Below are positions 43,197-53,114 of a stretch of 64,000 nucleotides of DNA, one piece after another. Every line of letters begins with the position of its first letter. Positions within the stretch are counted from its first letter, which is position 1. Location of the stretch: the NCBI GenBank assembly GCA_009691105.1, contig SHVU01000001.1, positions 22,882-86,881 on the forward strand, read 5' to 3'. Made by a program: the position numbers and the translations under genes. Under the pieces are notes generated by a model. That model saw only the letters and a list, made by a program, of their open reading frames with translations, searched no databases and was not told the DNA's origin. The stretch is from Rhodospirillales bacterium. Its GTDB lineage: Bacteria; Pseudomonadota; Alphaproteobacteria; Rhodospirillales; SHVU01.

Positions 43197-44189
43197 ATGA
43201 GCGAAATTCACCATGACGCCGTCGGCATCGGCAACGCCATCGTCGACGTCATCGCCAACGCCGACGAGGCGTTCCTGATCCGCCACGGCCTCGCCAAGGG
43301 GGGCATGACCCTGATCGACGAGGCCCGGGCCGAAAGCCTCTACGCGGCCATGGCGGCAGGGATCGAATCCTCGGGCGGCTCGGCGGCCAATACCATCGCG
43401 GCGCTGGCCTCGCTGGGCGGTACCGGCGGGTTCATCGGCAAGGTCCGCGATGACACCCTTGGCAAGGTCTTCGCCCACGACATCCGCGCCGGCGGCATCG
43501 CTTATGTGACCGCGCCGGCGACGGACGGCAAAGCCACGGCGCGCTGTTTGATTTTCGTGACGCCCGATGCCCAGCGTACCATGCAGACGTTTTTGGGCGC
43601 GTCCATCGATCTCGGCCCCGACGACATCCAGCCCGAGATGATCGCGCAAGCCAGCTACACGTATCTCGAGGGTTATCTCTGGGACCCGCCGGAGTGCAAG
43701 AAGGCCTTCCTGAAAGCCGCCAAAATCGCCCACGACGCCGGCCGCAAAGTCGCGCTCAGTTTGTCGGATGCGTTTTGCGTCGAGCGCCACCGCGCCGATT
43801 TTCTCGATCTCGTCACCGATCACGTCGACGTCCTGTTCGCCAACGAAGCCGAAATCACGTCGTTATTCCAAGCCCCGAATTTCGACGAAGCCTTGCAGAA
43901 GGTGCGCGGCCGAGTCGGGCTCGCGGCGCTGACACGCAGCGAAAAAGGCTCGGTCATCGTCGCCGGTGACGACGTCCATGTCGTCGATGCCATTCGCCAG
44001 GATCGCTTGGTTGACACGACCGGCGCCGGAGACGCCTACGCGGCGGGATTCCTGTTCGGTCTGGCCCGGGGTCGGACCGTGGTCGAATCGGCCCGGATCG
44101 GCGGGCTTGCCGCCGCCGAGGTCATCAGCCATTTCGGGGCCCGGCCGAAGACGCCGCTGCGTGATCTTCTGGCCCGCCACCCGGTCTAG
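43197..44189 (+). CDS. PfkB-family carbohydrate/adenosine kinase
   Basis: AVGIGNAIVDVI..., GGSAANT, DTTGAGDAYAAGFLFG (PfkB signature 2). Confidence 0.85.
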   Translation: MSEIHHDAVGIGNAIVDVIANADEAFLIRHGLAKGGMTLIDEARAESLYAAMAAGIESSGGSAANTIAALASLGGTGGFIGKVRDDTLGKVFAHDIRAGGIAYVTAPATDGKATARCLIFVTPDAQRTMQTFLGASIDLGPDDIQPEMIAQASYTYLEGYLWDPPECKKAFLKAAKIAHDAGRKVALSLSDAFCVERHRADFLDLVTDHVDVLFANEAEITSLFQAPNFDEALQKVRGRVGLAALTRSEKGSVIVAGDDVHVVDAIRQDRLVDTTGAGDAYAAGFLFGLARGRTVVESARIGGLAAAEVISHFGARPKTPLRDLLARHPV

Positions 44190-44237: not shown

Positions 44238-45515
44238 TTGAACCATGGTGCGATGAACACGCCGATCATGCCGGATGACGACGCCTGGTTCGACGCCAGC
44301 GCCACGCCGGGCCATCGTTTCGCCGTCGGGCGATTCTGGCGGGCGATGCCCTCGGGCATGCCGCGCCGCTGGTGGATGTTCCGCCCCTTCGATCTCGTGG
44401 CGCGCCATTGGCCCATAGGCAAACGTCGACGCGGCGTTCTCGTCGTCCGCATGGACGGCATCGGCGACATGGTGCTGTTCCGCCGCACCCTCGATCGTTA
44501 CGCGGAAATTTTCGGCGTCGAGCGGTCCGATATCATCGTGCTCGGATGTCGGAGTTGGGCGAGCGTCAAGGACGGGATCTTCGCCGGCTATCGCGTCCAC
44601 GCCATCGACGAGCATGCATTCGCGCGGTTTCCGCTCTATCGATTCAAAGTTTCGATGTGGGTGCGGCGTTTGGCGCCGGCTGTCGCTGTCTGTGATTCCT
44701 TTTTCCGCCGACCGCTCATGGCCGACTCGCTGGTGCTGGTGTCGGGCGCGCCGCGCCAAATTTTGTCGCTGCCACATATCAGCGAACGGACGCGGCCGCT
44801 GTTCACGTATTACCTGTCGCAAGCCACCGACATCGTCAATACCGGCCTCTATCCGACCCACGAGGCCGTGCGCCATGCCCGGTTCGTCTCGGCGCTCGCC
44901 GGGCGTCCCATCGCCGCCGAGCCGCCGGCCATCGCCTGGCGCGACGGACCGAACCCGGCGCGCGGCGCGCCGTACATCGTCCTCAATCCGGGTAGCAACG
45001 AGCCTGGCCGGCGTTGGCCGATCGCGTCTTATGCCGCGATCGCCAAACGGCTGCGGGCCGCTGGTCGCCGTGTTGTGCTGGTCGGCTCGGCCGAAGAAAA
45101 AATCCCGTCACCGGCTTTGGCGGCGTTGCGAAATGACGTTGGCATTCTCGATCTCACCGGCCGCACCAGCCTGCCGGAATTGATGGATGTGATGAAAGGC
45201 GCGGCTGCGGTCCTCAGCAACGATTCCGGACCGGCCCATCTTGCCATCGCGCTCGGGACGCCGACCGTCGTTGTCGTGGGCGGTGGGCACTTCGGAAGTT
45301 TCTTTCCGTACCCGGAAGGCGTGCGTCCGGACAACGCCCGTTTCGTCTTCCAAGAGATGGAGTGCTACCACTGCTTCTGGAGCTGTCATAAGCGGAAGAC
45401 CAAGTACGACGTCTTTCCGTGCATCAGCGCCATCGACGAAGACCGTGTCTGGCGCGAGCTCGACGGACTTCTGGCGCGGCCGGCGGCGCTTCGCGAGCCC
45501 TTACACGCTGGATGA
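44238..45515 (+). CDS. glycosyltransferase family 9 (heptosyltransferase-like) with a C-terminal 4-Cys motif
   Basis: GVLVVRMDGIGDMVLF, LNPGSNEPGRRWP, LTGRTSLPELM, SNDSGPAHLAIALGTPTVVV, then CYHCFWSCHKRKTKYDVFPC (45363-45422). An alternative start is ATG 44376. Confidence 0.75.
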   Translation: MNHGAMNTPIMPDDDAWFDASATPGHRFAVGRFWRAMPSGMPRRWWMFRPFDLVARHWPIGKRRRGVLVVRMDGIGDMVLFRRTLDRYAEIFGVERSDIIVLGCRSWASVKDGIFAGYRVHAIDEHAFARFPLYRFKVSMWVRRLAPAVAVCDSFFRRPLMADSLVLVSGAPRQILSLPHISERTRPLFTYYLSQATDIVNTGLYPTHEAVRHARFVSALAGRPIAAEPPAIAWRDGPNPARGAPYIVLNPGSNEPGRRWPIASYAAIAKRLRAAGRRVVLVGSAEEKIPSPALAALRNDVGILDLTGRTSLPELMDVMKGAAAVLSNDSGPAHLAIALGTPTVVVVGGGHFGSFFPYPEGVRPDNARFVFQEMECYHCFWSCHKRKTKYDVFPCISAIDEDRVWRELDGLLARPAALREPLHAG

Positions 45516-46639
45516 TGAGCGGCTTTCGTCTCAACAATCTCGTCGATAGGTGGTTGGCGCGACAAGCGCGCCCGGATCGGCCGGGCCGCGGCGTTCTCGT
45601 CGTGTCGAGCGGAGGCCTCGGCGACACGATTTTGTTCTCGCTCGCCTTCCCGCGCTTCCGCGCCCTCGCCCGCGCTGGCGAGCCGGTGCATCTCGTTCTG
45701 CGCCGCGACACCGCCAAGGCGGCGTTTCTGTTTCCGCCCGACGTCAATGTTATCGCCATCGACTATCGGCGCTTCGCCCGCAATCCGCTCTATCGCCTCC
45801 GCGAAGGGCGCCGCTTGCGCGACCTCGGGGTGCGCGTCGCGATCTCGGCCGATCATTTGCGCCTTCCGACCGTAGACGACGTTTTGGTCATGGCGACTGG
45901 CGCGGCGGAACGTTACGCGCTTGAGCCGCGGTCCTGGCCTAAGCACGATGCCCGGCTTCGTCGGAATCGTGGCTGGTACACGGACTGGGTGCCGGTCGCG
46001 CCGGGCATGGCCCACAAGATGCGGCGCTGGGTTGATCTCGCCAACGGCCTCGCCCAACGCGCCGATCCACTTCCTGTTGTTCGCATCGCGCCCGAGCGCT
46101 TGCCGGCGCCGGCCGCACTCGACGCTCCGACCGTCGTCATTCATCCGTTCTCGGCGGTCGCGGGCAAACAGCATTCGGTCGATCTGTGGCGGCGCATCCT
46201 GACGGCGCTGCCGGCGTCGTTCGAGGTCGTGGTTTCGGCTGGGCCCCGCGATCTCGCTGCGCATCCGGAATTCTCGACGCTGCTGGCGATGCCCCGGGTC
46301 CGGCTCGACGGCGGCGATCTTCGCTCGACCGCGGCGTTGATCCGCGCGGCGCGATTCGTCGTCTCGGTGGATTCGTCGATCCTGCATCTCGCCGCCGGCA
46401 CCGGAACGCCGACTTTAGCTTTGGCGAGCGCCGCTCACGTCGTCGACGCGGTGCCGTACGATCCGGCGATGACGCCCGCGAACGTCGAGGTCCTTTATCA
46501 CGACATGCCGTGCCGCGGCTGCTGCGGCCAATGCATCTATCCACCCGAAGACGGGCGCTATCCTTGCGTCGCACGGCTAGACCGGGACGTCGTCTTGGCG
46601 CGGGTTCAGGCGTTCGTGGAGAAAGCGGGGCAGTCTTAA
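45512..46639 (+). CDS. glycosyltransferase family 9 (heptosyltransferase-like) with a C-terminal 4-Cys motif
   Basis: GVLVVSSGGLGDTILF, VDSSILHLAAGTGTPTLAL, then CRGCCGQCIYPPEDGRYPC (46511-46567). ATG 45512 overlaps the upstream stop (ATGA). Confidence 0.75.
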   Translation: MMSGFRLNNLVDRWLARQARPDRPGRGVLVVSSGGLGDTILFSLAFPRFRALARAGEPVHLVLRRDTAKAAFLFPPDVNVIAIDYRRFARNPLYRLREGRRLRDLGVRVAISADHLRLPTVDDVLVMATGAAERYALEPRSWPKHDARLRRNRGWYTDWVPVAPGMAHKMRRWVDLANGLAQRADPLPVVRIAPERLPAPAALDAPTVVIHPFSAVAGKQHSVDLWRRILTALPASFEVVVSAGPRDLAAHPEFSTLLAMPRVRLDGGDLRSTAALIRAARFVVSVDSSILHLAAGTGTPTLALASAAHVVDAVPYDPAMTPANVEVLYHDMPCRGCCGQCIYPPEDGRYPCVARLDRDVVLARVQAFVEKAGQS

Positions 46640-46715: not shown

Positions 46716-47222
46716 ATGGCGTTGTCGTCTCGTGTATCCAAAATTAGTGCAGCACTGGCGCCGATCATCGCGATCGTCATCGGCGTGTCGGCATCGGCGC
46801 AAGACTTCTGGAATTATCCCGTGGTCGAAGCGATCATTGCCAACGATACGGCTGCTGTAACCAAATTTCTGGCCGACGGTCTCGATCCCAACCGCGATTA
46901 CGAGTTCGAACATCCGCGCTGGAACGATGGCAAGCCGACCAAGATGTGGCTGCCGATGGTCGCGGGCATGTTCGGCCGCCTCGACATTTTGAAAGGGCTG
47001 TACGCGCATCCGCAATTCAAGACGACCAAAGAGAAGAACACCTATCCCCTGTGCATGACGATTTCCCATCGCCATCCGGAGGTGGCGTTGTTCCTCCTCA
47101 CCAAAGACGTTTACGTCGATCCGCCGGGCGGTTGTTCGGGATGGTTCTCTCCGATGGCGCGCGCCAAAGAACAGGAACTGGACGTCGTCGTCGCGGCGCT
47201 TCGCAAGGCCGGTGCGCCATGA
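46716..47222 (+). CDS. secreted ankyrin-repeat-like protein
   Basis: Signal peptide (APIIAIVIGVSASAQD). Ankyrin-like units: AIIANDTAAVTKFLADGLDPN, GRLDILKGLYAHP, HRHPEVALFLLTK. AGGAGG SD upstream. Confidence 0.55.
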   Translation: MALSSRVSKISAALAPIIAIVIGVSASAQDFWNYPVVEAIIANDTAAVTKFLADGLDPNRDYEFEHPRWNDGKPTKMWLPMVAGMFGRLDILKGLYAHPQFKTTKEKNTYPLCMTISHRHPEVALFLLTKDVYVDPPGGCSGWFSPMARAKEQELDVVVAALRKAGAP

Positions 47223-47817
47223 CGATACGCGCAACGGTTCTTCTGGCCCTGCTGATCGTCGTCGGCTCCATCCCGGCTCGGTCCGCCGACCCGCTCGTCA
47301 TCGAGCCCAACGGTGCCGCGGTGCCGTCGGGCGTGATTGCTCCGCAAGCCACGGACGAGGTGGCAACGCCCGGGCCCCAGCCGGAAGCCGACGACTTCGT
47401 GATCGGCAGGCGGACGCGCCGGTTCTGGTCTACGAGTACTCGTCCTATTTCTGCACCGACTGCCGGCGGTATCGACACGGCCAGGCATCCGCGCGTTCTG
47501 AAACGTCTCGTCGACACCGGTGCCGTCCGATTCGTCCATCGCGACATGCCGCTATCGCCGCTTGCCTTCAAGGCCGCGGTTTTGACCCTCTGCGCCGCGC
47601 CGGATCAGCGCGATCGGGTCGCGGCTTGCCTGGACGACGACGCGGCGACCCCGGCGGTGCCGACGAATTCGCCGCCGGCCAAGCTCTGTTTCGCGTCGTC
47701 AAACTGCCGACGTTCTTTTTCGTCAAGGGCGACGCCGTGGCGCGCCTTGAAGGCGTCCCGACGCTCGAAGATTTCCAAGGTGTCATTGCCGCGCTCGACA
47801 AAGCCTCTCGTCCCTAA
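47219..47817 (+). pseudogene. DsbA-like thiol:disulfide oxidoreductase with about three frameshifts
   Basis: The homology path alternates between two frames. Signal peptide plus ...DDFVIG (frame A). ADAPVLVYEYSSYFCTDCRRY with CxxC (frame B, shift near 47404). HPRVLKRLVDTGAVRFVHRDMPL...LCAAPDQ (frame A, shift near 47484). DEFAAGQALFRVVKLPTFFFVKGDAVARLEG (frame B, shift near 47640-47665). Confidence 0.6.
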
Positions 47818-47835
47818 AACCGCGAGGAGACCGTC

Positions 47836-47976
47836 ATGAACGGACCGCGCCTTTTCGGATGCCTTCTCGCCATCGGCGTCCTTATGGCTCCGACCCTCGT
47901 TGCCGCGGCCGGCGGCTGCAGCTTCTACGACAACAACGAACGGCACGCCAAAGCGCCGATCGGGGAAACGGCATAG
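47836..47976 (+). CDS. small ORF (46 aa) encoding a signal-peptide-like peptide
   Basis: Not in the track (<60 aa). GAGGAG lies 6 nt upstream of ATG 47836. MNGPRLFGCLLAIGVLMAPTLVAAAGGCSFYDNNERHAKAPIGETA, stop TAG at 47974-47976. Confidence 0.3.
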   Translation: MNGPRLFGCLLAIGVLMAPTLVAAAGGCSFYDNNERHAKAPIGETA

Positions 47977-48074: not shown

Positions 48075-48296
48075 ATGCCGATCGGCGATAGCACCAAATA
48101 TATCGACTACGTGTTGACCACACCGCCGGACGTGACCCGCGAGGGCCGCGCCATGGTCGATGCGTTTCGCGGCAACCTCGGTCGCCAGAACTTCGATCAA
48201 CGCGTCGTCGATCGTCAGATCACGGTCGCCAAGCCCATCGGCGGAACGACGCTCGGCTCCGGCATCGTCGCGCAGGTCTACACGGGCCGCCGCTAG
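48075..48296 (+). CDS. hypothetical protein (73 aa)
   Basis: Track ORF MPIGDSTKYIDYVLTTPPDV... with no recognisable domain. The only support is an open frame in a gap between other calls. Confidence 0.25.
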   Translation: MPIGDSTKYIDYVLTTPPDVTREGRAMVDAFRGNLGRQNFDQRVVDRQITVAKPIGGTTLGSGIVAQVYTGRR

Positions 48297-48700
48297 TAGG
48301 GCTTGTAGGACTTTTCTTCCTGGAATTCGGAACCGAGCAGCGCATTCAATTCACGCTTCAGCTCGGCGCGTCGGTCGTTGGTGCGATAGACGGCGCGAGC
48401 ATGGCGGATGAAGCTCGGCCCGAAATTGCCGCGGCGCTCGCAATCGCGGATCGCGTCTTCGGTCGTCCATAACGTCGCGTTGGCGGCCCGCAAGCGTCCG
48501 ACCAAACGTTTCGCCGCCGCCGACAAACGGAAACCCCGCTTGCGGACTTTCTCTAGCGCCGCGAGTTCGATACGGACGTTCTTCAGCTTGGCGGCGTCGC
48601 CGATCCGCTTCGCCTTGATCTCGAGAATGGTGATCTTGTCCAGAAGCTCGCCGGGCGAGATCGGGATCAGAACGGATACGCCGGATGGTTTTTTCGCCAT
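48293..48700 (-). CDS. hypothetical protein, tentatively DUF6165-like
   Basis: 135 aa. VLIPISPGELLDKITILEIKAKRI... resembles small proteins seen next to glycosyltransferase genes (recollection, unverified). Confidence 0.55.
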   Translation of the reverse strand: MAKKPSGVSVLIPISPGELLDKITILEIKAKRIGDAAKLKNVRIELAALEKVRKRGFRLSAAAKRLVGRLRAANATLWTTEDAIRDCERRGNFGPSFIRHARAVYRTNDRRAELKRELNALLGSEFQEEKSYKPY

Positions 48701-49248: not shown

Positions 49249-50523
49249 GTGACCACCTGGGGCGAATCGGCCAAGGTCTATCTCGACCGCAGGGTCATCG
49301 CCGTTCTTGCGCTCGGGTTTTCGAGCGGGCTGCCGCTTCTTCTCGTCTATTCGACGTTGTCGGCCCGCCTTCAGGAAGCCGGCGTCTCGCTGACCGCGAT
49401 CGGACTCTTCAGTTGGGCGAGCACGGCGTACGCCATCAAGTTTCTCTGGGCGCCGCTTGTCGATCGTTTGCCGATTCCGTGGCTGACGCGGCGGCTCGGC
49501 CGGCGGCGTTCGTGGTTGATTGTCGCGCAGCTGGCGGTCGCGGCTACCATGCTCGGCCTTGGCTCGACTGACCCTGCCCAGAATTTAGTCCCTGTCGCCG
49601 CCTGGGCGGTGGCCCTGGCATTCGCGTCGGCAACGCAAGACATCGCCATCGACGCCTTTCGTATCGAGATCCTCGACGAGCGCAGCCAAGGTGCCGGCGC
49701 CGCCAACGTCGTCCTTGGATATCGCTTCGGCATGTTTGCAGCCGGAGCCGGCGCGCTGATCATTGCCGATCTCTATGGATGGTTCTCCGCCTACGCTGTG
49801 ATGGCGGTGCTGATGGTCGTCGGCATCGTCGCGACGTTGGGGACGCCCGAGCCGGAGCATGCCGAGGGTGCGTCGGCCGAACCGACAACGGCGGCGGCCT
49901 GGCTTGGCCGTGCCGTGGTCGCGCCGTTTGCGGATTTCGCGGCCCGTCCCGGCTGGATGGCAATTCTCGCCTTCGTGCTGTTGTACAAATACGGCGACGC
50001 TTTGCTCGGCGTGATGGCAAATCCGTTTTATCTCGCCATCGGCTTTTCGCTCACTGAGATCGGCGTCGTCAGCAAAGGCTACGGCCTTGCCATGACTTTG
50101 GTCGGCGGGATCGGCGGCGGCCTTCTGGTGGCGCGCCTCGGCATCCTGCCGGCGCTCCTCGTCTGTGGAATTCTGCAAGCCGTGTCGAACGTCGTCTTCG
50201 CCATTCAAGCGATGGTCGGCTATTCGCTGCCGATGCTGAGCGTCACCATCGCCGTCGAGAACTTGACCGGCGGCGCGGCGACAGCGGCCTTCGTCGCCTA
50301 TCTCTCCAGTCTTTGCGCGCCCAGCCACGCCGCGACGCAATACGCGTTGCTGTCGTCCTTCGCGGCGGCGGCACGGACGGTGCTCGCCTCGGGCGGCGGC
50401 TGGCTCGCCGAGGAATTGGGTTGGGTTCTGTTCTTTCTGGTGACGACGGCTGCGGCCGTGCCCGGCCTCGCGCTTCTTCTTTGGCTGATGCGCCGCGCCT
50501 CTAGCGTCCCGCCGCACCGCTAG
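49249..50523 (+). CDS. ampG: AmpG-family muropeptide MFS transporter
   Basis: 424 aa, about 12 TM. LGFSSGLPLLLVYSTLSARL, KFLWAPLVDR, RRRSWL: AmpG signatures. Confidence 0.85.
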   Translation: MTTWGESAKVYLDRRVIAVLALGFSSGLPLLLVYSTLSARLQEAGVSLTAIGLFSWASTAYAIKFLWAPLVDRLPIPWLTRRLGRRRSWLIVAQLAVAATMLGLGSTDPAQNLVPVAAWAVALAFASATQDIAIDAFRIEILDERSQGAGAANVVLGYRFGMFAAGAGALIIADLYGWFSAYAVMAVLMVVGIVATLGTPEPEHAEGASAEPTTAAAWLGRAVVAPFADFAARPGWMAILAFVLLYKYGDALLGVMANPFYLAIGFSLTEIGVVSKGYGLAMTLVGGIGGGLLVARLGILPALLVCGILQAVSNVVFAIQAMVGYSLPMLSVTIAVENLTGGAATAAFVAYLSSLCAPSHAATQYALLSSFAAAARTVLASGGGWLAEELGWVLFFLVTTAAAVPGLALLLWLMRRASSVPPHR

Positions 50524-51529
50524 CCACTGCCGCGTCGACAGCGTCGGCGACCGGGTTCAACGGAATCCAATGCAACTCGCGTCCGCCGAAATCTTGGGCG
50601 CGGATGATGGTCAGTCGATCGGTCATCGGCACGAACTTCCCGGGCTGAGTGACGCCGTAGAGGACGACGAGCGGCGCCCCGCCGATCGCCATCATGTGGG
50701 CGGCGCCGGAATCGTTGGCGGCGGCGGCGGCGACATGGCCGGCCAGGGCGATGGTCAGGAGCGGCGAATAGCAATGCGTCGTGCTGATCGCGTCGCTCTG
50801 CAAGGGAAACACCGCTTCGGGGACCGCGGCGCGAATCCGCGGCAACCAATCCAGCTCCATCGGACCGATGATGAAGGCCGGAGTCCGGCCGCGCGCCACT
50901 TGGATCCGGGCGAGCCCGAGGAAATTATCCAACGGCCAACATTTCGGCGGGCCGCCCGAGCCGGGCGCGATCGCAACATAGGTCGGACCCGGCGGCAGAA
51001 GTTGTGCGGCGAGCGCCGCCAGTTCGGGCGATGGGCGAAGATCGATCCGATCCGGTGTCGGGAATTTTTGTCCGCTCGCCAACTCGAGAAGATCGAGCAT
51101 CTGGCGGATCATACTGCGCGGCTTGGGATGATTGGGCGGCGGCCGCCGCGACGACAGCAAGAACTTCGCGGCCGGCGAAATGAACAGCTTGTGCGGGATG
51201 CGCCGCAGCGACAGCGTCGCCCAGACGATCTTCTGCGTATCGATGATGACGTCGAAGCGACGGCCGGGCAGAGCGCGACGTTTGAGGAATTCGATAGGAC
51301 GCTGGCCGATGCCGGCGCTCTCGATGACTTCGTCGAGCAGGCCTACCACTGTCGGAGCCATCCGCCCGGCGTAGAGGCTGGTGTCCTTGCCGGCGACCCA
51401 CGTGATGCGCGCTTCTGGGTACGCCGCGCGCAGGCTGAGGACAAACGGCAGCTTCAGAAGCGAATCGCCGATCCGGTCGAGGCCGACATGGACCATGACG
51501 GACCCCGGCTTTTCTTTCACGGCCGACAC
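50501..51529 (-). CDS. glycosyltransferase family 9 (LPS heptosyltransferase-like), no Cys motif
   Basis: VMVHVGLDRIGDSLLKLP, IAPGSGGPPKCWPLDNF, ANDSGAAHMMAIGGAPLVVLYG. Confidence 0.8.
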   Translation of the reverse strand: MSAVKEKPGSVMVHVGLDRIGDSLLKLPFVLSLRAAYPEARITWVAGKDTSLYAGRMAPTVVGLLDEVIESAGIGQRPIEFLKRRALPGRRFDVIIDTQKIVWATLSLRRIPHKLFISPAAKFLLSSRRPPPNHPKPRSMIRQMLDLLELASGQKFPTPDRIDLRPSPELAALAAQLLPPGPTYVAIAPGSGGPPKCWPLDNFLGLARIQVARGRTPAFIIGPMELDWLPRIRAAVPEAVFPLQSDAISTTHCYSPLLTIALAGHVAAAAANDSGAAHMMAIGGAPLVVLYGVTQPGKFVPMTDRLTIIRAQDFGGRELHWIPLNPVADAVDAAVASGAAGR

Positions 51530-51631: not shown

Positions 51632-52582
51632 GTGATGAAGCTTTTCGGACGCGAGGCGATCAGTGTCGCCGCGCTCGCCGTCGCCTTCGGCGTCGCGAGC
51701 ACCGCGATGGCTGCGTCCGCGCCGGAACCCTCCATCCTTTTTCCCGACGATTGGGGAACCCGGCTTCCGGGCTTGCCTGAACAACCAAGCCGGGAGGTCG
51801 CTACCTGGATCGCCGGCTGGACCGGCGATGTGACCATCGAATACGCCATCGCCCCCCAAGGCTGGGGCCCGCAGACCCCGCGCGTCGCCCGGCTCTACTC
51901 GTTTTTTCAGAAACAACTCGTCTTTAGCCAAAGCTTTCCGAGTGAAATGGCCCTGCGCGAATCCGAGGACTTGCGCCGGGTCCGCGCCGCCACCAGTCCC
52001 GCCGCCGGATCGGGGTTGCTATTTCTCTATCCGATCGAAACGGGTCGTCCGATTCAGGATTCGTTCGCGCGGCTCGCCAAAGCCAGCAGCCCGCCCACGG
52101 TGGCGATCCGTGGACGGATCGAGACCCGGACCTTGTTCGATCAGGGTCGATCCAGCGTCTTCGGTCCCAACTACATTCTGTTCAGTCCCGATGGCGAGGT
52201 CCTCGCCGACACGGTGTTTGTCGAGACCTTCAGTCGCCCGACCACGGTGGCTGCACGCCGTAGCGCCGGCGAATTTCTGAGACCGGAGCGATGGAAAAAC
52301 GTCCAGGCGGTCGGGCTGGCCTTCTCGTTCTATCCCTTGCCTGATGGAACGTTGCTCGGCGTCGATGGCGAACGACGCGTCGTCGCCCGATTCGACGCCC
52401 GACTCAGCTCGCCCTTTTTTTCCCGCGATGGATCGCTGGCCGCCATCGACGGCGCACGGTTTCGCGAATGGATCGAAGAGGCCCGGACCAAGGCCGCGCC
52501 GCGTGGCCAGTTGCCGGACGCCGATGCCGTCGATCGCTATCTCGCCCGGCAGATCATTGCCGCCGGCCAAACTCGCAAATAG
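51632..52582 (+). CDS. hypothetical secreted protein
   Basis: 316 aa. Signal peptide ...[12 protein letters not shown]|AS. No recognisable domain. The ATG at 51635 is the likely true start. Confidence 0.5.
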
Positions 52583-52583
52583 C

Positions 52584-53114
52584 ATGGCCGCCGCCCCCAC
52601 ACGAATGAGCGTGATCGAGGGCGACATTACGCGCCTTCGCCTCGATGCCATCGTCAACGCCGCGAATTTGGCGCTTCTCGGCGGCGGCGGTCTCGACGGC
52701 ACCATTCATCGCGCCGCCGGTCCGCAACTGCTGGATGAATGCCGGAAGCTCGGCGGCTGTCCGACCGGCGATGCCAAGATCACGAGGGGCTACCGGCTTC
52801 CCGCCAAACACGTCATCCATACCGTCGGTCCGGTGTGGACAGGCGGCGCGGCGGGCGAGGATCAGTTGCTCGCCAGCTGCTATCGCCGCTCGCTCGACGT
52901 CGCGGTTCGCAACCGATTGTCGTCCATCGCCTTTCCAACGATCTCGACCGGCGTCTATCGCTTTCCGGCCGATCGGGCGTCGAAAATCGCCGTCGGCGCG
53001 GTCGCGACATATCTCCGCACCGACACGACGCTCGTTACCGTGACCTTCTGTTGCTTCAGCAGCGACTCGGCCAATCTGCGCCGCGCCGAGATTGCGAAGC
53101 TCGATTTGGGCTAG
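52584..53114 (+). CDS. macro-domain protein (O-acetyl-ADP-ribose deacetylase / ADP-ribose-binding, YmdB-like)
   Basis: [37 protein letters not shown]..., [23 protein letters not shown]. Confidence 0.85.

Follow-up and report, generated by a model that had tools for sequence, protein, structure and literature searches.

A four-cysteine knuckle in two tandem GT9 glycosyltransferases of a Rhodospirillales bacterium and its relationship to the TibC finger and to LPS heptosyltransferases

A 64-kb stretch of contig SHVU01000001.1 from the Rhodospirillales bacterium assembly GCA_009691105.1 (hereafter the window, whose own coordinates are used throughout) encodes two tandem glycosyltransferases of the GT9 family, GT9_1 and GT9_2, each of which ends in a cluster of four cysteines. 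The preliminary description of this DNA likened these clusters to the metal finger of the bacterial autotransporter heptosyltransferases (BAHT) typified by TibC and AAH, and raised the possibility that the two enzymes act on a protein or another acceptor distinct from lipopolysaccharide (LPS). The locus raises the question of whether such a cluster can tell what a GT9 enzyme glycosylates. The comparisons described below indicate that it does not predict a protein acceptor, and that GT9_1 and GT9_2 are in all likelihood LPS-type GT9 enzymes with a structural metal knuckle rather than BAHT enzymes. With less assurance, but still as the reading that we favor, their acceptor would be a lipid-linked glycan, either the inner core of LPS or a different one.

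The four-cysteine knuckle and its conservation

The open reading frames, the Pfam model PF01075 (Glyco_transf_9; 86.3 bits for GT9_1, 34.5 for GT9_2 and 53.3 for a third GT9 gene of the window, GT9_3, against a gathering threshold of 22), the nucleotide sequence itself (bases 45510-45520 read GGATGATGAGC, in which the TGA of GT9_1 overlaps the ATG of GT9_2) and an ENA gene call made independently on an identical metagenome contig, which returned the same 420-aa and 375-aa genes, all agree with the earlier reading of two tandem GT9 genes coupled through an ATGA overlap. A TTG at 44238 is an alternative start for GT9_1, and would lengthen it by 5 residues to 425 aa. The translations reproduce exactly the cysteine motifs reported for both proteins, which are spaced C-x2-C-x3-C-x11-C in GT9_1 and C-x2-C-x3-C-x10-C in GT9_2. 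If cysteines were placed randomly, four or more would fall within 20 residues with a probability of 0.004 in GT9_1, which has six in total, and 0.002 in GT9_2, which has five. As had been stated, GT9_3 lacks such a C-terminal motif; its only two cysteines, C197 and C253, are both remote from the C-terminus.

The conservation of these cysteines among homologs, which the preliminary description had proposed to check, proved to be nearly complete. All four are kept in each of the 120 best homologs of GT9_1 (54-91% identical, nearly all from Rhodospirillales-type metagenome-assembled genomes (MAGs)), which display the pattern C-Y-H-C-F-W-x-C-x11-C, and in 94 of 94 full-length homologs of GT9_2 (102 homolog clusters were found), a narrow clade of about 100 clusters. 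In contrast to the four conserved positions, the extra cysteine of the 'CC' pair in GT9_2, C338, varies among homologs. The knuckle persists even among more distant relatives of GT9_1 (28-55% identical to it): the best 150 include 122 full-length proteins, of which 119 have it in the form C-[FY]-x-C-x-W-x-C-x(~11)-C. When 1.84 billion cluster representatives were searched exhaustively with HMMER, we recovered at least 311 relatives of GT9_1 with E<1e-30 (counted as 50%-identity clusters), 4,392 with E<1e-10 and 23,983 with E<1e-3. Judged by sequence, the knuckle marks a large, unnamed and uncharacterized GT9 subfamily ('C[FY]xCxWxC-x11-C', hereafter the Cys4 subfamily) to which GT9_1 belongs; none of the tested members passes a curated NCBIfam model.

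In the AlphaFold2 (AF2) model of GT9_1 the knuckle is a loop devoid of regular secondary structure (predicted local distance difference test (pLDDT) 76-91), which connects the final C-lobe strand to the C-terminal helix. Based on the invariance of the cysteines, their alignment with the metal ligands of TibC (see below) and the cytoplasmic nature of the proteins, this loop is a putative one-metal structural knuckle, and the four cysteines of GT9_1 and of GT9_2 most plausibly bind a single zinc or iron ion tetrahedrally. The role of the metal would be a structural one in the C-lobe loop. We give almost no credence to the alternative that the cluster forms disulfides or a redox-sensing Fe-S cluster instead of a mononuclear metal site. 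That TibC binds iron and not zinc (PMC4358343) could be seen as compatible with it, but the correspondence of the four-ligand pattern to the solved 1Fe-0S site favors a mononuclear center, and stable disulfides are unlikely in cytoplasmic GT-B enzymes in which neither a signal peptide nor a transmembrane segment was detected.

Relationship to the TibC finger and to LPS heptosyltransferases

The Fe(III) ion of TibC is coordinated by C339, C342, C358 and C370 in a site solved as 1Fe-0S, with iron and not zinc as the metal, and the finger has been described as unique (PMC4358343). We used the TibC sequence of E. coli H10407 (L061:8640-9860), encoded directly upstream of tibA, for comparison. An hhalign alignment of the Cys4 subfamily with TibC (probability 94.3%, E 9.6e-8) placed the four cysteines on the four iron ligands, with the TibC finger HGCYGCWDDTSLNFDHHDFLWCPRHKNTDRQFECTRLITGAQV corresponding to MECYHCFWSCHKRKTKYDVFPCISAIDEDRV in GT9_1. 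The spacings, C-x2-C-x15-C-x11-C in TibC versus C-x2-C-x3-C-x11-C in GT9_1, differ by a 12-residue insert specific to TibC between the second and third cysteines, and the two share a 'CY(G/H)C' motif, the 11 residues between the third and fourth cysteines, a C-x3-I-x4-V pattern running on from the fourth, and a GT9-related C-lobe. An ungapped pairing of C339, C342 and C358 with the first, second and fourth cysteines was considered and dropped, as the alignment with the 12-residue insert matches all four and preserves the x11 spacing. A profile of the knuckle alone (A2) matched only the Veillonella parvula structure 3TOV and not TibC, and the correspondence thus rests on the full-length alignment, with its C-lobe flanks, and on the visual agreement of the motifs. 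Further, the GT9_1 family profile matches TibC with an E-value of 3.4e-6. The 'unique iron-finger' of TibC looks like an expanded copy of a widespread GT9 four-cysteine knuckle; we found no paper that notes this kinship in the searchable library available to us, which is incomplete.

A ligand-by-ligand match of this kind, together with the profile match and a weak match of GT9_1 to the BAHT model TIGR04414 (E 3.6e-6), is what would be expected if GT9_1 and GT9_2 were protein O-glycosyl- or heptosyltransferases like TibC and AAH, with the finger gripping a protein other than an autotransporter, possibly a secreted one encoded nearby. The small downstream gene orf168 (46716-47222), whose start resembles a signal peptide as read by eye only, is a candidate substrate on this count, and one distant member of the subfamily lies in a flagellin glycosylation island (see below). 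Several observations nevertheless make this proposal very doubtful: 1) The TIGR04414 score of GT9_1 is 26.2 bits against a cut-off of 200, GT9_2 does not match the model, and TibC as a control scores 613 bits. 2) BAHT enzymes (PDB 4RAP and 4RB4) carry an N-terminal beta-barrel of flattened shape (in TibC, residues 1-97), a reduced, four-stranded N-lobe, and a thumb formed by a beta-hairpin of the C-lobe near F265/V266 that makes dodecamer contacts (PMC4358343). The AF2 models of GT9_1 and GT9_2 show no such barrel, and instead begin with helices or disorder followed by a full Rossmann N-lobe of regularly alternating strands and helices; no hairpin thumb is seen between the matching C-lobe strands of these models, and no such insertion in the hhalign alignment. 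3) TibC has PSGLSW where GT9_1 and GT9_2 retain the LPS-type signature D(S/T)(G/A/S)xxH. 4) TibC is a dodecamer and in H10407 its gene is directly followed by tibA, the gene of its autotransporter substrate, whereas no autotransporter is found among the annotated genes of the window, as the preliminary description had noted, nor in 65 related loci; orf168 falls outside the conserved synteny. 5) The folds and profiles of both proteins are nearer to WaaC, WaaF and WaaQ, and a true LPS WaaF, that of Pseudomonas, itself bears a four-cysteine cluster. All four cysteines are present, invariant and aligned with the TibC ligands, in a finger 12 residues shorter, but such a cluster is also borne by GT9 enzymes outside the BAHT group, Pseudomonas WaaF among them, and is therefore not diagnostic of that group. 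GT9_1 and GT9_2 are not BAHT enzymes.

The Pseudomonas case bears directly on the earlier statement that the cysteines set these proteins apart from classical LPS heptosyltransferases. This holds for E. coli WaaC, WaaF and WaaQ, which are devoid of the knuckle, as are 3TOV and GT9_3, but fails for the WaaF of Pseudomonas. A search with an approximate Pseudomonas WaaF sequence, which is about 91% identical to real entries, returned 120 clusters (P0278-P0397), all of which have four cysteines at the aligned position. Wherever a source name is attached to a cluster, it reads 'lipopolysaccharide heptosyltransferase II' or an equivalent, and one of the 120, P0280, scores 540 bits on TIGR02195 (cut-off 134.6), establishing it as a true heptosyltransferase II. 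The form of the cluster is C-x2-C-x4-C-x6-C (consensus CSPCF[DE]RTCRFGHYNC), as against C-x2-C-x3-C-x10/11-C, with a conserved tryptophan in the relatives of GT9_1, in the proteins of the window. This suggests an unreported putative metal site in a well-studied LPS enzyme; a literature search on zinc or cysteine sites in WaaF recovered nothing relevant. As the knuckle is shared by the Cys4 subfamily, Pseudomonas WaaF and TibC, it says nothing about the acceptor. The idea of a metal-finger GT9 group accordingly survives in the alignment of the four cysteines with the iron ligands of TibC, and falls as a marker of protein glycosylation.

The predicted structures of GT9_1 (mean pLDDT 85.9, predicted template modeling score (pTM) 0.87) and GT9_2 (94.7 and 0.92) both display the GT-B fold, with two Rossmann-like lobes as in WaaC and WaaF (TM-scores of 0.70-0.78 with 3TOV, 1PSW and 2H1H; all Foldseek TM-scores are normalized by target length). 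The matches of GT9_1 to 3TOV, WaaF and WaaC (0.68-0.78) exceed those to TibC (0.48-0.56), and GT9_2 matches WaaC best (0.73-0.75, versus about 0.50 for TibC); a phmmer search of PDB sequences with GT9_2 yielded no match. The top match of GT9_1 is 3TOV (0.78), a GT9 protein of unknown function whose sequence can be aligned across the knuckle and on to the end of the C-terminal helix, but whose corresponding loop has no cysteines. Among the top matches of both models is also PnsB1, a subunit of the chloroplast NDH complex (9grx_1, 7wff_a and 7f9o_6; TM-score 0.57-0.66), in which a GT9-like fold has been co-opted by a photosynthetic complex. A hidden Markov model (HMM) of the Cys4 subfamily gives 430 bits for GT9_1 and 202 for GT9_2, followed by WaaQ (98), Pseudomonas WaaF (92), E. 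coli WaaF (86), WaaC (73), GT9_3 (61) and TibC (29); the LPS enzymes align with it from the N-terminal GD motif onward and TibC only over the C-lobe.

The likeness to WaaC, WaaF and WaaQ (PDB 2H1H and 1PSW) extends over the full length of the two lobes and includes the GD-motif aspartate as well as the D(S/T)(G/A)xxH signature. The heptosyltransferase signature has been defined as D(T/S)(G/A)xxH (D261-H266 in WaaC), with a D(T/S)(S/A)xxH variant in WahD, and D13 of WaaC is the catalytic base (PMC3559599). The GD aspartate and the signature aspartate and histidine are invariant in the alignments of both GT9_1 (G69, G71, D72, D324 and H329 in alignment A1) and GT9_2, and the serine at the third position of DSSILH in GT9_2 fits the WahD variant. 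Of the core motifs listed previously, the GD motif and the DSGPAH or DSSILH signature are thus found in both proteins, and RxWP in GT9_1 (PGRRWP) but not in GT9_2. The sugar-binding loop, NPGSNEPGRRWP in GT9_1, reads RRWP where WaaF has KRWP and WaaC KHWP (the K192 loop), that is, with arginine instead of lysine. The tandem arrangement of GT9_1 and GT9_2 also resembles that of E. coli waaF-waaC. On the other hand, WaaC, WaaF and WaaQ have no counterpart of the roughly 55 conserved residues, rich in Trp and Arg, by which GT9_1 is extended at its N-terminus (consensus FWRALPAGMRRRWWMFRPFDLIARHWP; 44253-44430, residues 1-60), which AF2 models with low pLDDT (40-57) and which may be a membrane-surface or partner-binding segment; no LPS genes are seen near GT9_1 and GT9_2. 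Taken together, GT9_1 and GT9_2 are cytoplasmic GT-B enzymes of the GT9 family, of the architectural type of the LPS heptosyltransferases, that lie outside the curated HepI, HepII and HepIII equivalogs (heptosyltransferases I-III). Given the catalytic GD aspartate and the D(S/T)(G/A/S)xxH signature, their predicted donor is most likely ADP-heptose.

Gene neighborhoods of GT9_1, GT9_2 and their relatives

The features of the locus are collected in Table 1. About a third of the open reading frames of the window are unannotated; the annotated part is core chromosome with housekeeping neighbors, and comprises rho, hemE, aroE, lutB, hslU, gshB, hemN, hrcA-grpE, dnaK-dnaJ-dapB, DUF2244, nth, bactofilin, EI24, pfkB, GT9_1, GT9_2, orf168, DUF6165, GFA, ampG, GT9_3, macro, mutS, glnD, murJ and a gene for an M20 peptidase. 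None of the annotated genes encodes a repeat-rich acceptor.

Table 1. Coordinates of the GT9 genes, their motifs and neighboring genes in the window
Feature	Position	Strand	Remarks
PfkB-family kinase	43197-44189	+	Conserved upstream neighbor; PF00294; passes no NCBIfam equivalog
GT9_1	44253-45515	+	420 aa counted from ATG
G-I-G-D motif of GT9_1	44457-44468	+	D72 is the counterpart of the WaaC catalytic base D13
NPGSNEPGRRWP loop of GT9_1	44985-45020	+	Aligns with WaaF 'GAEFGPAKRWP' and the WaaC K192 sugar-binding loop
DSGPAH signature of GT9_1	45222-45239	+	D324 and H329 invariant
Four-cysteine knuckle of GT9_1, CYHCFWSCHKRKTKYDVFPC	45363-45422	+	C371, C374, C378, C390
ATGA overlap, GT9_1 stop TGA and GT9_2 start ATG	45512-45515	+	Translational coupling
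GT9_2	45512-46639	+	375 aa
GGLGD motif of GT9_2	45611-45625	+	Catalytic Asp equivalent; G35, G37 and D38 invariant
DSSILH signature of GT9_2	46370-46387	+	D287 and H292 invariant; DTALLH or DTSxMH in orthologs
Four-cysteine knuckle of GT9_2, CRGCCGQCIYPPEDGRYPC	46511-46567	+	Conserved C334, C337, C341, C352
DUF6165-like small protein	48293-48700	-	24 bits on PF19662, short of its cut-off (27)
AmpG-family major facilitator superfamily permease	49249-50523	+	TIGR00901 496 bits, cut-off 350
GT9_3, third GT9 gene	50501-51529	-	Convergent with AmpG; conserved; without Cys knuckle
Macro-domain protein	52344-53114		Passes the O-acetyl-ADP-ribose deacetylase model

We compared this region with 58 loci from species-representative genomes (MAGs labeled Rhodospirillales, Thalassospiraceae or Magnetovibrio) together with metagenome contigs, with slot contents counted over 65 loci. 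The order nth-bactofilin-pfkB-GT9_1-AmpG-GT9_3, the last on the opposite strand, is conserved across the related loci, and GT9_1 is a conserved single-copy gene in the related Rhodospirillales MAGs; a tblastn search of plasmids with GT9_1 yielded no match. The slot between GT9_1 and AmpG is empty in 43 of the 65 loci, and elsewhere holds a class I S-adenosylmethionine (SAM) methyltransferase (17 loci), a GT9_2 ortholog (13) and a DUF6165 gene (4, in addition to the window). GT9_2 orthologs were found in this slot only. One of them (L016, 2983-3636) matches the first 229 residues of GT9_2 and continues in frame with unrelated sequence; it is likely a frameshift or a pseudogene, consistent with GT9_2 being dispensable. 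Based on the synteny and the slot counts, GT9_1 is a conserved enzyme of housekeeping type and GT9_2 a lineage-variable addition, which is the pattern expected of a core glycosylation step with an optional decoration.

In many Rhodospirillales MAGs the genes for PfkB, GT9_1, AmpG and the macro-domain O-acetyl-ADP-ribose deacetylase form a tightly packed string (e.g. L062, 5127-10899), and in two loci (L062 and L063) neighboring genes of the series pfkB-GT9_1-methyltransferase-GT9_2-AmpG-macro either share 4 bp or are separated by 2-8 bp. To our knowledge no pathway joins a GT9 enzyme to AmpG or to a macro domain. The possibility that the PfkB protein is a heptose-7-phosphate kinase of the HldA type was dismissed, as its score with the model for rfaE domain I is 52 bits (cut-off 345) and its partial matches to ribokinase-type models are better. 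The strong conservation and tight spacing of this order, together with the assignment of AmpG (which passes TIGR00901) and of the macro protein, could be explained if GT9_1 had the muropeptide permease AmpG, PfkB and the macro protein as partners in a cytoplasmic process that has nothing to do with LPS, for example one in which a cell-wall fragment is modified after its import, or an ADP-linked metabolite is modified. We regard this as very improbable. Genes of a housekeeping region may stay next to each other without sharing a function, GT9_3 is convergent to AmpG, the whole block is set among unrelated core genes, and we know of no GT9 enzyme that acts on cell-wall fragments or ADP-linked metabolites.

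Between orf168 and the DUF6165 gene of the window (47212-47840, + strand) are overlapping open reading frames in two frames, one with an 'FCTDC' motif and a weak match to thioredoxin-like lipoproteins, and the other with a signal-peptide-like start and, as judged by eye, a resemblance to DsbA toward its C-terminus; the ENA gene caller reported only fragments of 46 and 73 aa here. This region may be a frameshifted pseudogene of a thiol:disulfide oxidoreductase.

DUF6165 itself recurs next to these transferases. A homolog lies directly downstream of GT9_2 orthologs in L026 (11892-12305), L029 (11935-12336), L064 (9065-9469) and L065, overlapping the stop codon of the GT9_2 ortholog by 4 bp in the last two, and in L066 (7605-7994) another is found 7 bp upstream of the gene for P0128, a relative of GT9_1 with 38% identity, in an unrelated context. 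The DUF6165-like protein of the window also has weak similarity to DUF4254; we found no relevant literature on either family. These associations suggest that the DUF6165-like protein may be a partner of Cys4-type GT9 transferases, and the recurrent pairing offers the first functional lead for the DUF6165 family.

More distant Cys4-type members occur in quite different settings. One (L067) lies inside a polysaccharide cluster of the Wzx type with GT2, GT4, GT10 and GT11 genes; another belongs to a cluster in a Dongiaceae MAG (L068) that comprises three genes for GT9 enzymes, one for a GT2 and five for FkbM methyltransferases; and P0163 is fused to a GT2 domain. In Pseudomonas sp. ABC1 (CP058349.1; L069, 1-9560) a 519-aa member, P0247, is encoded in what appears to be an island for flagellin glycosylation, immediately downstream of the flagellin gene, along with a set of sugar-modifying genes for a DegT aminotransferase, a β-ketoacyl synthase III (KAS III), short-chain dehydrogenases/reductases (SDRs), a PglD-like acetyltransferase and a Rieske oxygenase. 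We found no literature linking GT9 enzymes to flagellin glycosylation; an apparent 'GT9' in a preprint on phage DNA glycosylation was a false match to 'GT94'. The clusters with Wzx or FkbM genes, the GT2 fusion and the variable cassettes of methyltransferase and GT9_2, which resemble strain-variable glycan decoration, allow for the possibility that GT9_1 and GT9_2 function in the synthesis of a glycan other than the LPS core (O-antigen, exopolysaccharide (EPS), capsule or flagellin-linked), on an undecaprenyl-linked or glycan acceptor. We consider this conceivable but on balance improbable. Across family-level diversity GT9_1 retains 54-73% identity and a fixed housekeeping position, which is unusual for O-antigen or EPS transferases, and the annotated part of the window contains no Wzx, polymerase, initiating transferase or sugar-nucleotide genes, MurJ being the lipid II flippase.

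Probable roles and acceptors of the two enzymes

The proposal that the acceptor is the inner core of LPS or some other lipid-linked glycan is derived from the architecture of the enzymes, their conservation and the layout of a core gene with variable additions. Several observations weigh against it. 1) The curated NCBIfam models for HepI (TIGR02193, cut-off 185.3 bits), HepII (TIGR02195, 134.6) and HepIII (TIGR02201, 170.2) score 47.2, 74.5 and 40.7 bits, respectively, with GT9_1, and 26.3, 16.0 and 30.7 bits with GT9_2, below the cut-off in every case. 2) In a rough neighbor-joining tree, computed without bootstrap and with TibC as the chosen root, GT9_1 falls inside the Cys4 subfamily and GT9_2 in a clade of its own, both apart from WaaC, WaaF and WaaQ, while GT9_3 groups with WaaC, WaaF, WaaQ and WaaU. 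3) No waaA, lpx or ADP-heptose genes are found in the annotated part (about two thirds of the open reading frames) of the 64 kb. 4) The tight operon with AmpG, PfkB and the macro protein has no obvious LPS logic. 5) The non-core contexts of subfamily members in the Wzx-type cluster and the flagellin island imply that the acceptors of the subfamily are diverse and that some of its members may act on a protein-linked glycan. The profile and tree comparisons that the preliminary description had proposed place the proteins in neither the curated LPS equivalogs nor the BAHT family (26 bits against 200 for GT9_1, and no match for GT9_2), and in separate clades of the rough tree. It is unlikely, though conceivable, that GT9_1 and GT9_2 have a non-LPS acceptor, be it a protein, a glycan attached to one, or a substrate that is cytoplasmic or imported and tied to the PfkB-AmpG-macro operon, with the knuckle serving as a TibC-like iron module for recognition or oligomerization. 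If true, this would amount to a new housekeeping glycosylation system in Rhodospirillales.

Under the LPS-type reading that we prefer, GT9_1 is most likely a conserved and GT9_2 an accessory glycosyltransferase, both probably heptosyltransferases, of the LPS core or another lipid-linked glycan. GT9_1 would catalyze a conserved glycosylation step and GT9_3 a second one, while GT9_2 would extend or decorate the product of GT9_1 in particular lineages, as its translational coupling to GT9_1 and its accessory distribution suggest. GT9_2, the SAM methyltransferase and DUF6165 would then be optional cassettes inserted after GT9_1.

The genes themselves are uncharacterized members of a well-known family, and in this respect the direct finding is modest. 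The knuckle, however, appears from these comparisons to be an old and widespread GT9 module, present in the Cys4 subfamily and in WaaF of the Pseudomonas type, which has been considered as a drug target, and in an expanded version in TibC. If such knuckles do bind metal, many GT9 enzymes would be unrecognized metalloproteins, and the finger would be unusable for predicting protein glycosylation.

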